Positions 8,276-20,978 of a DNA stretch of 64,000 nucleotides are shown here, in pieces. This DNA comes from an uncultured Candidatus Saccharibacteria bacterium. GTDB taxonomy: Bacteria > Patescibacteriota > Minisyncoccia > Phycocordibacterales > PCTT01. The notes below the pieces were generated by a model. The model saw nothing but the letters and a program-made list of their open reading frames with translations, was not told where the DNA came from and ran no database searches. Every line of letters begins with the position of its first letter. Position 1 is the first letter of the stretch. The position numbers and the translations under genes were made by a program. Location of the stretch: positions 132,581 to 196,580 of the forward strand of contig CAZMIM010000001.1 in NCBI GenBank assembly GCA_964566505.1, in the 5' to 3' direction.

Positions 8276-8325
8276 CCTGACTCTGGATCAGGAGGTTCCA
8301 GGTTCGAATCCTGGTAGGGCAACCA
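8276..8325 (+). other. tRNA-Gln(CUG) 3' half (anticodon arm, T-arm, acceptor 3' strand, CCA); the 5' half is absent, so this looks like an att-site remnant
   Basis: Anticodon stem cctga/tcagg with loop ctCTGga; T-arm ccagg-ttcgaat-cctgg; acceptor tagggca-a-cca. Upstream sequence cannot pair into an acceptor or D arm. Confidence 0.55.
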
Positions 8326-8330
8326 CTTGA

Positions 8331-8378
8331 AAAGCCCCGTAATGATGCCCATTAGGCTCATACGGGGCTTTTTCTTTG
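8331..8378 (+). terminator. Rho-independent terminator
   Basis: aaagccccgta...tacggggcttttt hairpin followed by a T-run. Confidence 0.6.
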
Positions 8379-8470
8379 TTTTGAACTCCCGCTTAGATTC
8401 GGTTGCACCTGAGTATGTTTTGGCAAGTTTGAGTCGTTTTTCGTATCACTAGAGTATCACTTGATACGAT

Positions 8471-9739
8471 ATGGCGACAAAGACGATGCAACGAGAGGGC
8501 CATCGAAGCCGAAAGGCTCCAACTCTAATTCAACACTCCAAGTCTGGGAGCTGGTATGCCAGGTTTCGAAGAGAAGGAGTCAGTCTACCAATTGGGCTTC
8601 GAACCCCGGTTCGTTCCAAGTCCCTGAAGCCTCCAACAACAGGCCAAGACGCGTGGATTCAAGTGGGCAACTACTTCTACCCCCGGCACGTGTATGACCG
8701 ATTCACCGCAGACTTTGTAACCCCATACTTACGTGGGGACTTTGAGCCCGGTCATCCATCCGGAGATATCCGCGTTGCGGAAGCCATCGAGAAATTCGTG
8801 AGTCGAACGGACCTGACCGTTAATACTCGTGAAAGCTACAGGGCGACATTCAGGCTGTTTCTTAACTCAATTCCCGACAGGCGGATGAAAATGACCGAGT
8901 TGAGGAAGGAGGATCTTTTGCAATTCTCGAATCGAGTCCACCTTTCCGCTGCCTCTAGGGCTTCATACCGCAGGCAGATAAACGCGCTTATCAACTGGTG
9001 CTACCGAGAGAAGTATCTGGACAACCGTGACCTTGTTCTTCCAGTCTCTACCCTAAAGTCTGGCCGTCTAGGAAGGAAGATGTTCCTGTCGCCTGAGCAA
9101 TATCTTGAGATTAGGAGATTGATTGAAGCCGCGTCTGAGGAAATTCCAGACTATCGGAAGAAGCGAAGGTTTTTGTCCTGGACCCTAGACGTTTACGATC
9201 TGGCCCTCTCCACGGGACTCAGACTTGAAGAACTGGTCCAGCTTCAATGGCAGGATGTCAACATTGAACGTGGTGTTCTCGAAGTTCGCCCTAAGAACCA
9301 GAATGACGATGGGTTAGATTTCACACCCAAAAGCAAGAGGGCAAGATGGGTAGAGCTCCAGCCTCTAGCCATTGACGTACTGCAGCGCCCCCATATCAGC
9401 GCGAGGTCTGACAGTTCACATTCAAGAGTGTTGGTCGGCCCGCTGAGCACCGGTGGCCAGCTGGAAGAAATTCGCGGTGAGCGGGCAAGCAAGGTGTGGC
9501 GGAAGTACCGAAAATTAGTTCCGTATTGCGACCCATTACCCTTCCACGGGCTTAGGCACCTGTACGTAACCTACTGCCTAATTCTTGGATACAAGCCGTT
9601 CTTCGTTCAAAACTGGGCCGGGCATTCCTCGTTCTCAACCACCGAGCAGTATGCTCAGTTTGCTTCTCAGCTTTGCTCGAGAAACGAGCGAAATAAGCTG
9701 ATTGACGATATCTTGAACCTGGGTTTCAGGCTCCCATAA
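8471..9739 (+). CDS. int: Tyrosine-type site-specific integrase
   Basis: 422 aa. Box I STGLRLEEL, box II HGLRHLYVT, catalytic region GHSSFSTTEQYA (His...Tyr). Adjacent to a tRNA 3' fragment. True start may be downstream of the track start. Confidence 0.85.
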   Translation: MATKTMQREGHRSRKAPTLIQHSKSGSWYARFRREGVSLPIGLRTPVRSKSLKPPTTGQDAWIQVGNYFYPRHVYDRFTADFVTPYLRGDFEPGHPSGDIRVAEAIEKFVSRTDLTVNTRESYRATFRLFLNSIPDRRMKMTELRKEDLLQFSNRVHLSAASRASYRRQINALINWCYREKYLDNRDLVLPVSTLKSGRLGRKMFLSPEQYLEIRRLIEAASEEIPDYRKKRRFLSWTLDVYDLALSTGLRLEELVQLQWQDVNIERGVLEVRPKNQNDDGLDFTPKSKRARWVELQPLAIDVLQRPHISARSDSSHSRVLVGPLSTGGQLEEIRGERASKVWRKYRKLVPYCDPLPFHGLRHLYVTYCLILGYKPFFVQNWAGHSSFSTTEQYAQFASQLCSRNERNKLIDDILNLGFRLP

Positions 9740-9753
9740 CCTGAGGAGACCGT

Positions 9754-10251
9754 TTAAAACACTTTGCTTGCTTCAAGCATTACGAACTCGGCGCGAGCAC
9801 TTGCGACAAGTTCACCCTCTTGAACGAGCTCAGAAGTGCACGAAATTCTATTGGTGGATTTGGGACTTGTTTCAACACGACCAACAGCCACAGCGGATTT
9901 TCCGGGACGCAATGGCTTCAAAAATTTCATCTCTAGAGAATGAGTCAGCACAGCGTTATCAACAACGGCCGAGCTTAACAGCGCCGCAATTCCTGCAGCG
10001 CTGTCAAGATAGAAGGAAACCTCTCCTCCATGCGTGATTCCAGGATAAGCACACTGCATTGATTCGGCACGAACTTCAATTCTGGTACAGAGATTTTGGG
10101 TGCTGACAACAACGTCTCTTTTTAGGTCCACATTGTGCCGCTCATAGACATGAATTGAGGATCTGAGATAGCTGCCCAGAACTTTGGCTTGTCTTGCCTC
10201 AGAGTGCACGAAACTGCCTAAGGCTTCATAAGTGCTTGTTTCTGAATCCAC
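9754..10251 (-). CDS. Hotdog-fold acyl-CoA thioesterase (PaaI/YbgC-like)
   Basis: 165 aa. ...PGITHGGEVSFYLDSAAGIA... HGG-type hotdog motif. Confidence 0.55.
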   Translation of the reverse strand: MDSETSTYEALGSFVHSEARQAKVLGSYLRSSIHVYERHNVDLKRDVVVSTQNLCTRIEVRAESMQCAYPGITHGGEVSFYLDSAAGIAALLSSAVVDNAVLTHSLEMKFLKPLRPGKSAVAVGRVETSPKSTNRISCTSELVQEGELVASARAEFVMLEASKVF

Positions 10252-19252: not shown

Positions 19253-19373
19253 CGTATTGACCTCCTGATATGAAATGATCTGTGGGCTAGAGGCACATCG
19301 TGTGGTGCACATCCTCGTCCATCGTATCGGGAAGTCGATGTGGCAAGTAGACGGTTTTTCGGGGTGAACCTGT

Positions 19374-20570
19374 CTACTTGTCAAAGGGGTATCGTCTGGG
19401 GTCAAGTGTATCGGCACTGAATGGCTTGGACACAGCACCATCGATCATCATTCTGAGGTAGATCGAGTGGTTCGGCAGATTTTCGAAGTCTTCGAACGAG
19501 AACTTGGGATAGAACTCCTTCGCCATGATTCTGGAATCAGTCGAACCCAACCTAAATGAGATTATGGTGCCCACGTTTCCAAGAATGGCTTCTCTCATTT
19601 CTCGGTCTCCTTGCCCTGTGTATTGCTGGCAAATCGCCAAACATACCTTGTATTTACGAGCCTCAGAGAACATCTGGTAGAAAACAGGGGATGAGTAAGC
19701 ATGGACCTCATCTAAATAGGCCGAAAAGTCTCTTCGTCGTTCCTCAGGAGTGTCTGCTCGCGCTAGTGTTGCAGTCTCCAAAGATGCCATCAGCAAGCCT
19801 CCGATTAGGTAGGCAGTATCTTCTCCGACTTTTCCTTTCGCCAGGTTGACCAACAGTATTTTTTCACTGTCGATGATGTCTCGAAGGTCGACGCTTTCCC
19901 CTTTGCCCGTCAGGAGGTCAAATGAAACGGGATTGGCAAGAAATGCCCCTGTTCTGTTCAGAATTGGTGCAATGGTTTCGGCTCTGTATCGAAGAGGAAT
20001 TTTCTCATATTCAAGTCGCCAGAATCTTCGCACTTCCTCATGTTTGATGTATGGAATGACCCCGTTACGAAACGATTTGTCCTGAAGCATCCGCGGAATG
20101 TCTCGGAGCGTGGCATTAGGCAAGTACAGCAATGAAATCAGAGTCATCCTTAATTTGTGTTCCATCGCCGGTCCCCACCAGGAGCTCCATAGTTTCTTGA
20201 ATGTGTTTAGGAGGCTTGAGGCAACAAGAACCCTCTTGTCTTCGGGGACATCTCTCAGTGGATTGAATGAAAGCAGCATGGATGCATGCGGCAGATTGAG
20301 ATCCACGAGCCGATGCTGATCTGCAGGTCCAATACGACGCTTCACATTTTCGTAAAGGTCGCCGTGGGGATCAACGAGCATAAATCCGCGCCCACGCCGG
20401 ATGTCTTCCGCTGCGAATATCTCTAGCAGACTGGATTTCCCGGTTCCTGTTTTTCCGAGAATGTAGATGTGTGACCGCCTATCGATACCATTTCGGATGC
20501 CAAACACCGTTTGGCGGCCTCGGTGATTGGTCCGGGCGAAATATGCAATTTGATCCTCGTCATTTCGCAT
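19374..20570 (-). CDS. P-loop NTPase of conjugative/mobile-element type (TraD/TrwB-like or HerA/DUF87-like)
   Basis: 398 aa. Walker A ILGKTGTGKSSLL, Walker B-like SAYLDEVHAY. No TM helices. Confidence 0.5.
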   Translation of the reverse strand: MRNDEDQIAYFARTNHRGRQTVFGIRNGIDRRSHIYILGKTGTGKSSLLEIFAAEDIRRGRGFMLVDPHGDLYENVKRRIGPADQHRLVDLNLPHASMLLSFNPLRDVPEDKRVLVASSLLNTFKKLWSSWWGPAMEHKLRMTLISLLYLPNATLRDIPRMLQDKSFRNGVIPYIKHEEVRRFWRLEYEKIPLRYRAETIAPILNRTGAFLANPVSFDLLTGKGESVDLRDIIDSEKILLVNLAKGKVGEDTAYLIGGLLMASLETATLARADTPEERRRDFSAYLDEVHAYSSPVFYQMFSEARKYKVCLAICQQYTGQGDREMREAILGNVGTIISFRLGSTDSRIMAKEFYPKFSFEDFENLPNHSIYLRMMIDGAVSKPFSADTLDPRRYPFDK

Positions 20571-20911
20571 TCTCTCATTGTTTCATCAGGGTCTACCTAG
20601 TGAAGGCGGTGGGTTAGGTGGTTGCCGATCTTCATCCACTACCGGAGCACATTGGAGGTAGTGACGCCACTATTGACGAACATATTTTAGCCACACACCC
20701 CCACTTTCGTCCTCGTTCCCGAATTGTCAAATCAACATGTATTTAGCCTATTCAAAGGCGCAGACCCAATGCAATTAGTCTACATGGGGTAATTCGTTCG
20801 ATGACAAATAGTTGGACAGTTGACTAAAGCAGACGTTTTGCATGAACGCATGGATTTGTTTGCTAGAATCACCCTCGGCCCAAAGAGCAAATCACTCGTA
20901 TTGGGCAGGTC

Positions 20912-20939
20912 AGTGGTTCGAGTCCGCTCATTGGCTCCA
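20912..20939 (+). other. tRNA 3' fragment (T-arm plus acceptor 3' strand plus CCA) with no foldable 5' part; probable att-site remnant
   Basis: agtgg-ttcgagt-ccgct T-arm, cattggc-t-cca. Upstream sequence does not give an anticodon or D arm or a complementary acceptor strand. Confidence 0.4.
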
Positions 20940-20945
20940 TTAAAA

Positions 20946-20978
20946 AAGCCCTTTCTGATGTCAGAAAGGGCTTTTTTG
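20946..20978 (+). terminator. Rho-independent terminator
   Basis: aagccctttctga-tg-tcagaaagggctttttt. Confidence 0.6.

Follow-up and report, generated by a model that had tools for sequence, protein, structure and literature searches.

Integrative mobilizable elements (IMEs) with a relaxase of their own, some of them also with a coupling protein, have been described, as has their tandem accretion at tRNA genes alongside decayed elements (PMC5704250). Islands of this type, accreted at tRNA genes and with a relaxase and a type IV coupling protein (T4CP) but no mating pore, are common and well reviewed. Here we describe a 12.7-kb stretch (positions 8276-20978) that carries an integrase and a mobilization kit made of a relaxase, a MobC protein and a coupling protein. 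It lies in a 64-kb window, the whole piece of DNA that was analyzed, which is part of a 283-kb contig; all coordinates are those of the window. By analogy, the region would work like a canonical IME or mobilizable module, in which a relaxase, a ribbon-helix-helix (RHH) accessory protein and the element's own VirD4-type T4CP are combined with the pore of a helper (PMC5704250, PMC5357655). Like known IMEs, it sits in a multi-element island, its tyrosine integrase adjoins the 3' segment of a tRNA, and it encodes a MobA/VirD2-type relaxase, an RHH accessory protein and a VirD4-type T4CP of its own but no mating-pore genes. It differs from them in that its ends come from two different tRNAs and no matching attL/attR pair was found, that its T4CP has a C-terminal helix-turn-helix (HTH) and shares an operon with unannotated envelope proteins, and that it encodes a second, soluble TrwB-like ATPase and a RadC protein.

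We interpret the region as a composite IME-like island in two parts, and give this reading a probability of about 0.6. It looks like the fusion of two mobile elements, which is an ordinary kind of bacterial island, rather than one excisable unit. The first part (8276 to ~12700) would come from a lineage of genomic islands that insert at tRNA-Gln(CTG) and would represent their integration end, with a tRNA 3' copy, a terminator, the tyrosine integrase and three accessory genes (a thioesterase, an XRE-cupin protein and an orphan binding protein of the tripartite ATP-independent periplasmic, TRAP, type). The second (~13400 to 20978) would be a mobilization module of a widespread but barely annotated family, in which an operon of envelope proteins and T4CP is followed by a candidate origin of transfer (oriT), MobC and a short relaxase, with RadC and the soluble TrwB-like ATPase on the other strand; its terminus would be an old, displaced tRNA-Thr(CGT) 3' end with a host-type terminator.

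We scanned all open reading frames (ORFs) of the window of at least 110 aa, plus the small ORFs inside the element, against the profiles of Pfam and NCBIfam, and compared the region with metagenomic and genomic loci numbered L001 and onwards (L001 is scaffold_26 of ENA ERZ23499306). The profile searches agreed with every gene call of the first-pass annotation (integrase, thioesterase, XRE-cupin, DctP, T4CP, MobC, relaxase, RadC and P-loop ATPase), with matches much stronger than chance would give. The integrase, relaxase, T4CP, ATPase and RadC all retain their catalytic or nucleotide-binding motifs.

Mismatched ends and a modular integrase block

The left end (8276-8325, + strand) consists of the 3'-terminal 50 nt of a tRNA-Gln(CTG), from the anticodon stem to the CCA. 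It matches positions 27-76 of the intact tRNA-Gln(CTG) of L007 at 100% identity (BLAST E 4e-24) and is an att-type partial copy, not a gene. Its Rfam score of 29.7 bits is right at the threshold, and ARAGORN called no tRNA at either end of the region. A terminator hairpin with perfect 12-nt arms follows it (8330-8372, +); the same hairpin lies 3' of the intact tRNA-Gln in L007 and is conserved together with the integrase. The 5' half of the tRNA is absent left of 8276, where a frameshifted transposase-like remnant is found instead. A tRNA 3' segment directly followed by an integrase is a product of tandem accretion at a tRNA gene (PMC5704250), and therefore the intact tRNA-Gln may lie beyond the left edge of the window.

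At the other end (20884-20939, +) lies the decayed 3' part of a tRNA-Thr(CGT). Positions 20892-20939 are 94% identical to positions 29-76 of this tRNA, and the alignment can be extended to 20884 (E 1e-15), so that identity ranges from 89 to 94% over 48-56 nt; the five mismatches over 56 nt break the anticodon stem. The last 25 nt match exactly the 3' ends of intact tRNA-Thr(CGT) genes in many metagenome-assembled genomes (MAGs). The bidirectional terminator hairpin beside it (20942-20977, perfect 17-nt arms) resembles those found 3' of intact tRNA-Thr genes, and BLAST alignments to L051, L033 and L025 continue through it at 80-84% identity. The window copy thus looks like an old displaced host 3' end of the attR type. 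Since orphan copies of the tRNA-Thr segment are present in other genomes, some of which share a contig with an intact tRNA-Thr (L040/L051, L015/L025), tRNA-Thr(CGT) is a recurrent integration site. Such orphan 3' copies were seen in MAGs of Rhodothermales/Bacteroidota type, namely JANQQV010000024.1 (L040/L051), CALSQR010000002.1 (L015/L025), L020, L023 and L049, and L025 has a tyrosine integrase close to its intact tRNA-Thr. This tRNA looks like a general integration hot spot.

The first-pass annotation had placed the element between two tRNA 3' fragments, each with a terminator. Both fragments and both terminators are present, but one is Gln-CTG and the other Thr-CGT, and they form no attL/attR repeat. 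The search for a direct repeat joining the two ends found none, and the fragments have in common only the generic T-loop (GGTTCGA). Short-word BLAST of the whole tRNA-Gln and tRNA-Thr against the window recovered nothing beyond these two fragments, apart from matches to the T-arms of real tRNAs. As the ends are different tRNAs without a common repeat, they are not an attL/attR pair of one element, and attL x attR recombination cannot release the 12.7-kb stretch with these boundaries. The excision product once proposed, joining 20.9 kb to 8.3 kb, has no basis in these unmatched ends. The region is either immobilised, or mobile only inside a larger structure whose other att site lies beyond the window.

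Two further observations concern the tRNA-Gln segment. Both L005 and L008, independent Logan contigs with the same integrase lineage, break inside it (at about window positions 8294-8296), as expected if the segment is repeated (attL/attR) or polymorphic in those communities. A possible decayed tRNA-Gln at ~36.2 kb, at the edge of the GC-rich region, was rejected: its alignment score was 16, against a background of up to 24, and it had no tRNA match in Rfam.

The genes of the first part start with a tyrosine integrase of 422 aa (8471-9739, +; Phage_integrase 1.7e-15), from the lineage targeting tRNA-Gln, with its catalytic residues R251, H359, R362, H385 and Y394 present. The protein is identical on L005 and L006, and a relative with 93% protein and 94.7% DNA identity lies beside the intact tRNA-Gln of L007. 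Three genes follow on the opposite strand. The first encodes a 4HBT-type thioesterase (9754-10251, -; PF03061 5e-7; 99.4% identity in L005), apparently cargo, and the second an XRE-type HTH protein with a cupin domain (10266-11594, -; HTH_31 3e-6, Cupin_2 1.3e-5; 99.8% in L005), which would be cargo or a regulator. The third is an orphan TRAP solute-binding protein, DctP (11623-12714, -; DctP 9.5e-56), with a twin-arginine (TAT) signal, weakly matched by the TAT_signal profile, and a lipobox; no DctQ or DctM partner was found for it in the window. The first-pass annotation had grouped a membrane protein and a lipoprotein with these three genes as cargo; both belong to the T4CP operon, as indicated by overlapping codons and by the layout of L001.

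Comparison with other loci suggests that this block, from 8296 to 12637, behaves as a separate module. It is found at 99.86% identity on the 8.2-kb contig L005, obtained from another sample, which then continues into unrelated DNA. The identity stops within the 5' end of dctP; in L005 this gene has no signal-peptide region and lies against an outer-membrane gene that is truncated. The similarity to L007 and L008 ends ~50 nt short of the end of the integrase gene, and other cargo follows in both. This modularity speaks against the earlier view of one intact element. For the genes of the second part, the best identities are 38% for the T4CP (among 5.8 billion clustered proteins), 60% for the ATPase and 55% for RadC, and there is none for the lipoprotein. 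The two blocks are separated by a spacer of ~700 nt (12715-13411) that has no credible gene in the ORF list and is a possible junction. It holds a 10-nt perfect hairpin (12955-12995), and we found in it no RNA family, tRNA remnant or att remnant.

The earlier statement that the element is GC-richer than the right half of the window is correct, as 8276-20978 has 50.6% GC and 36001-64000 has 40.7%. However, the atypical composition is not confined to the element: the whole of 1-36 kb stands out in composition.

The mobilization module

The module opens with five genes (13412-17612) chained by overlapping stop and start codons, with ATGA at three of the four junctions. The first (13412-14407, +; start codon inferred) encodes a membrane protein with a basic N-terminus, ~4 transmembrane (TM) segments by hydropathy and a coiled-coil C-terminus, which matched no family of Pfam or NCBIfam. 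It is followed by a lipoprotein of 284 aa (14404-15258, +) with the lipobox LAFAISGC. The lipoprotein matched no family, a search of 5.8 billion proteins returned only itself, and its AlphaFold2 model is unusable (pLDDT 35). Two tiny proteins come next, one of 45 aa with a single TM segment (15255-15392, +), whose gene shares an ATGA overlap with that of the lipoprotein, and one of 74 aa with two TM segments (15394-15618, +), which has the same type of overlap with the T4CP gene. The latter protein shows 34-38% identity over 42-50 aa to the N-termini of the T4CPs of the window and L001, a weak similarity subject to the compositional bias of TM segments. Because of the overlapping codons with the T4CP gene, the membrane protein, the lipoprotein and the tiny TM proteins form one operon and are not free cargo. 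L001 has the same order of multi-TM coiled-coil protein, lipoprotein and T4CP. Homology of the window membrane protein and lipoprotein to these positional counterparts was sought by BLASTP, which returned nothing. Pfam gave a VWA_2 hint for the L001 lipoprotein (E 0.11).

The VirD4-type T4CP (665 aa; 15615-17612, +) matches T4SS-DNA_transf (6.3e-41; 141 bits for a cut-off of 20.1), TraG-D_C (1.1e-14) and TrwB_AAD_bind (3.1e-12). It has the domains, Walker motifs (A at 119-124, B at 360-365) and membrane anchor (TM segment 1-29) of the VirD4/TraG coupling proteins. Its best named family is VirD4-like CD1115 (NCBIfam NF045973), with 172.7 bits, below the 250-bit cut-off, and a search of species-representative genomes with this T4CP gave no match. 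The C-terminal extension carries a MerR/Xis-type HTH, faint here (HTH_17, E 0.012) and clearer in the L001 homologue (MerR_1, 7.5e-7); it is absent from the plasmid-borne T4CP relatives of 440-520 aa.

A candidate oriT core, recognised by conservation, begins 10 nt after the T4CP stop codon (17622-17642, +) and reads GCAAGTACGCG-CTA-CTTCCGG; its 3' end lies 76 nt upstream of mobC. The consensus found upstream of mobC is GCAAGTACGCG-N3-CTTCCGG. The three closest elements have 18 of the 21 positions in common, and the GCAAG core occurs in all six family members examined. The 11-mer GCAAGTACGCG is present once in the window, and among 55 loci it occurs solely upstream of mobC, in L001/L002 and L003/L004. 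The stretch GCAAGTACGCGCTACTTCCGG would hold the putative nic site. There is no significant hairpin beside the candidate core (fold z = -1.2 in the window), and the intergenic regions hold no classical nic-site consensus (YATCCTGY, GTGCGCC).

Downstream lie a MobC/NikA-type RHH protein, the presumed relaxosome accessory factor (17718-18101, +; MobC 4.2e-13, NikA-like 5.5e-7), whose homologues adjoin the relaxase in L001, L003, L012 and L055, and a short MobA/VirD2-type relaxase of 192 aa (18098-18676, +). The relaxase scores 32.5 bits against PF03432 (E 1.2e-7, cut-off 24.6), and has the N-terminal tyrosine and the HxDxxHxH-type motif of HUH relaxases. As the first-pass annotation had proposed from the histidine motif, the assignment is sound: Y19 and the triad H107, H114 and H116 are invariant across 14 family members. 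Against NCBIfam MobP2 the protein reached 15.8 bits for a cut-off of 200. We found 1235 representative clusters of relatives, 851 of them at E <= 1e-10, and these proteins typically have 260-340 aa. Conservation in the family is limited to residues 1 to ~180, and the window protein keeps the full nuclease domain and lacks the variable C-terminal tail.

On the opposite strand are a RadC-like JAB/JAMM protein (18767-19441, -), whose real start is probably M64, near 19252, and a soluble ATPase of 398 aa without TM segment (19374-20570, -). The former scores 132.8 bits against RadC (7.6e-39; cut-off 22.1) and has the E...HxH...D motif (E153, H173, H175, D186). The latter had been recorded as a second P-loop ATPase on the opposite strand, and we can sharpen its identity to a TrwB-like protein paired with RadC. 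The Pfam match is to DUF87 (1.6e-5), and more than 5400 relatives of 390-440 aa were found. In a profile search of the PDB, TrwB came first (3e-9) and DotL next (7e-8). The AlphaFold2 model (pLDDT 85) has TrwBdeltaN70 as its top Foldseek match (E 1.5e-12, TM-score 0.61-0.65, ~400 residues), followed by HerA, DotL and Cag-beta, with VirB4 absent from the top 50; matches to TrbE had E 6e-4 or worse, far below cut-offs. The predicted fold and the profiles indicate that it is a coupling-protein-like ATPase without membrane anchor, and not VirB4. It shares with TrwB of R388 and the VirD4 family the same fold over ~400 residues, including the helical insertion, both Walker motifs and the size of TrwBdeltaN70. 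It differs from them in having no TM anchor, in an identity of 14-16%, and in being a second copy beside a canonical membrane-anchored T4CP and genetically paired with RadC.

Homologues of this ATPase lie beside Mob modules in L001, L012 and L013, and its two closest relatives each adjoin a RadC that is 53-55% identical to that of the window. Distant members are found in mobile contexts, with serine recombinases, ParA, DUF932 and methyltransferases, and the protein also resembles a component of a defence system (PADLOC mad8, 3.9e-13). We further observed longer paralogues of 545-1085 aa, one of them with DUF8128 (L011 9838-13095, L012 13039-14676, L013 15445-17373), in plasmid-like or island contexts (ParA, Rep, ArdC, Replic_Relax) that have no recognisable type IV secretion system (T4SS). 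Annotation thus gives a poor idea of the size and variety of this ATPase family, both of which are much greater than it suggests.

The same transfer genes are found together repeatedly. L003, L012 and L013 carry MobC, relaxase and T4CP, and the last two also have the homologous second ATPase. L001 encodes an ATPase (37% identity), MobC (33%), relaxase (50%) and the closest T4CP (38%), together with a tyrosine integrase, and resembles the window in its multi-TM/lipoprotein/T4CP layout, its C-terminal MerR-type HTH and the same 11-mer oriT-like core. It differs in that its integrase is 25% identical and placed straight after the T4CP, its cargo is an ABC/ECF-type transporter, its relaxase is a 306-aa form, and, relative to mobC, its oriT-like core lies on the other strand. 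A search of 72,556 sequenced plasmids with the relaxase gave one match, the 14.7-kb plasmid NC_006140.1 of Desulfotalea psychrophila LSv54. Like the window, it has MobC (31%), relaxase (29%) and T4CP (27%) in one cluster and a GCAAG-containing motif upstream of mobC. Unlike it, this is a plasmid with a Rep gene, in the order MobC, relaxase (306 aa), two small genes and T4CP, and it carries no integrase, no RadC and no second ATPase. The annotation calls its mob genes hypothetical, and its type in PLSDB is non-mobilizable. None of its 17 annotated features is a separate pore gene, and a complete pore would not fit on a plasmid of this size, which supports mobilization over self-transfer for the relaxase family.

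From this gene content we propose that the relaxase, together with MobC, would nick the DNA at the oriT that precedes mobC, and that the element's own coupling protein would pass the relaxase-DNA complex to a T4SS pore. As the region has no pore genes, this pore would be that of a conjugative element in the same cell. The integrase would recombine at tRNA-Gln.

Mating pore and competing explanations

The scanned ORFs of the window include no member of the VirB4, VirB6, VirB8, VirB9, VirB10 or other pore families, with the limit that four small or unannotated envelope ORFs remain without a family match; therefore, transfer would need the pore of a helper. This agrees with the first-pass annotation, which had seen no VirB4/VirB6/VirB8-type genes and had suggested dependence on a helper. 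Neither of the outcomes it had named as refuting its reading, namely the failure of the Mob assignments in profile searches or the emergence of pore genes on re-examination of the ORFs, was encountered. Compared with the usual definition of an IME, the region has its own site-specific recombinase (Phage_integrase 1.7e-15, with catalytic residues), no complete mating-pair-formation system, a predicted relaxase (PF03432 above the gathering threshold) and an oriT-like core. It lacks attL and attR with a common core, given the Gln and Thr fragments and no second copy of either in 64 kb. Since matching att sites fail, we file it as IME-like, composite and possibly immobilised. The VirB4-type ATPase and pore components of an integrative and conjugative element (ICE) were not found in the scanned ORFs, and the second ATPase matches TrwB, DotL and HerA.

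A composite origin is the best reading of the blocks, short of proof. We regard as established what the genes encode, that their catalytic motifs are intact, that the ends do not match, that the two parts are distributed as modules, and that an oriT-like core is conserved; in what order the parts fused, whether a helper is needed and what the envelope proteins, RadC and the second ATPase do are matters that we infer. Several points weigh against it. The internal junction cannot be located, as the spacer 12715-13411 contains no att or tRNA remnant. The two parts differ little in composition (GC 49.4% vs 52.2%, tetranucleotide distance 0.209). In the related element L001, the integrase and the transfer genes make up one unit, so that the region may also have arisen as a single element. 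L005 has been rearranged too, its dctP and outer-membrane protein genes being truncated, and its divergence does not prove that a transfer module was missing at any time. The window covers 64 kb of the 283-kb contig, and pore genes or matching att sites may be present beyond its edges. Finally, the predicted relaxase is at the short extreme of its family, and its role and that of the putative oriT are assigned from sequence features.

Among the alternatives, we think it unlikely that the region is a single intact 12.7-kb IME, with the tRNA fragments as att sites, which excises and is mobilized by a helper. The modules are indeed contiguous, the integrase and the transfer operon have one orientation, all parts are GC-richer than the host, the motifs of integrase, relaxase, T4CP and ATPase are intact, and in L001 the integrase stands straight after the T4CP in one element. 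Yet the two ends come from tRNA-Gln and tRNA-Thr, with the T-loop in common and no repeat; the left fragment has no tRNA 5' half and hence is not an attL on an intact gene; the left fragment is perfect and the right one decayed; and the integrase block is found elsewhere with other right-hand neighbours.

Somewhat more doubtful is the idea that the region is a remnant or portion of a larger ICE, whose pore genes have been lost by deletion or are located beyond the window, such as close to an intact tRNA-Gln to the left of position 1. A tRNA 3' fragment followed by an integrase fits tandem accretion, in which case the DNA left of 8276 would be another element; all of 1-36 kb is compositionally foreign, and a transposase pseudogene remnant (rve_3-like) abuts the tRNA-Gln fragment, although the rve_3 match is under the Pfam threshold. 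No pore gene or fragment is detectable in 64 kb, however, and the relatives of the Mob module on small plasmids and islands are likewise without pore genes.

It is very improbable, in our view, that the recurrent gene set is an unrecognised compact, VirB4-independent transfer apparatus of uncultured bacteria, carried by small plasmids and integrated elements, and not a mere helper parasite. Such a set would comprise MobC, the short relaxase, a membrane-anchored T4CP (with the Xis/MerR-like HTH in the integrated versions), poorly conserved envelope proteins and the soluble TrwB-like ATPase, often with RadC. In a weaker version of this proposal, the C-terminal HTH of the T4CP would be an excision or directionality factor that couples excision to transfer. 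More improbable still is a self-sufficient system in the region itself, with the envelope proteins and the second ATPase as a minimal DNA export apparatus lacking VirB4. Translational coupling of the multi-TM protein, the lipoprotein and the two tiny TM proteins to the T4CP, the same architecture in L001, a homologous second ATPase with the Mob family in four of six element types examined, and the very large ATPase family in mobile contexts without known T4SS genes would fit it, but the envelope proteins of the window and L001 have no sequence similarity, their place is taken by small soluble proteins in L003 and in the Desulfotalea plasmid, no second ATPase accompanies the Mob module of this 14.7-kb plasmid, and the ATPase resembles mad8 and has its closest relatives beside RadC on short contigs with no Mob genes. 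To our knowledge, all known systems for conjugation of single-stranded DNA need VirB4.

Neighbouring DNA and implications

The transposase-like frameshifted remnant that abuts the tRNA-Gln fragment (7800-8250, -) reached E 0.0012 for rve_3 after manual frameshift repair, below threshold. Farther left (2221-7125, -) lies the gene of a 691-aa ABC exporter of bacteriocin type, which contains a C39 peptidase domain, followed by those of a 155-aa protein and of a multi-TM protein of 786 aa without family match; this DNA has 44-45% GC and atypical tetranucleotides, and may be part of another element. A defence-type island (21033-35960; 47% GC, atypical for the host) starts directly right of the tRNA-Thr remnant. 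It encodes a SocA/Panacea antitoxin-like protein (21415-21921) with a small membrane partner (21033-21428), a Beta-protein/PD-Lambda-2_C protein (22548-23633; 6e-59), an HD/dGTPase-like protein of 664 aa (25301-27295), an NS-type endonuclease (28471-29547), two alpha/beta-hydrolase-like proteins and a homologue of Shedu SduA (34848-35960). It also holds an IS3-type OrfA (24020-24667, -; HTH_Tnp_1 2e-23). The insertion-sequence-like remnants at ~7.8-8.25 kb and 23.6-24.7 kb were considered as flanks of a composite transposon and rejected, as they were not significantly similar in tblastx. Housekeeping DNA (GyrA, LeuRS, IF-2, ClpB and tRNAs) at 40.7% GC makes up the right half of the window. The host core genes there include an unusually short IF-2 (<=569 aa; 46095-47804) and a protein that joins sigma-70 region 4 to a HARE-HTH domain (60398-61438). 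The host may not belong to the Bacteroidota-like group to which relatives of the mobile genes point.

More generally, a gene cluster flanked on either side by tRNA fragments is not for that reason alone an excisable element. The soluble TrwB-like ATPase, often with RadC, recurs beside Mob modules, and its candidate roles are transfer, establishment and defence. The conserved oriT-like core offers a directly testable nic-site candidate for this relaxase family. Because the family is large in metagenomes and yet has a single plasmid match, annotated as hypothetical and typed as non-mobilizable, current MOB typing probably under-counts mobilizable DNA in environmental lineages.

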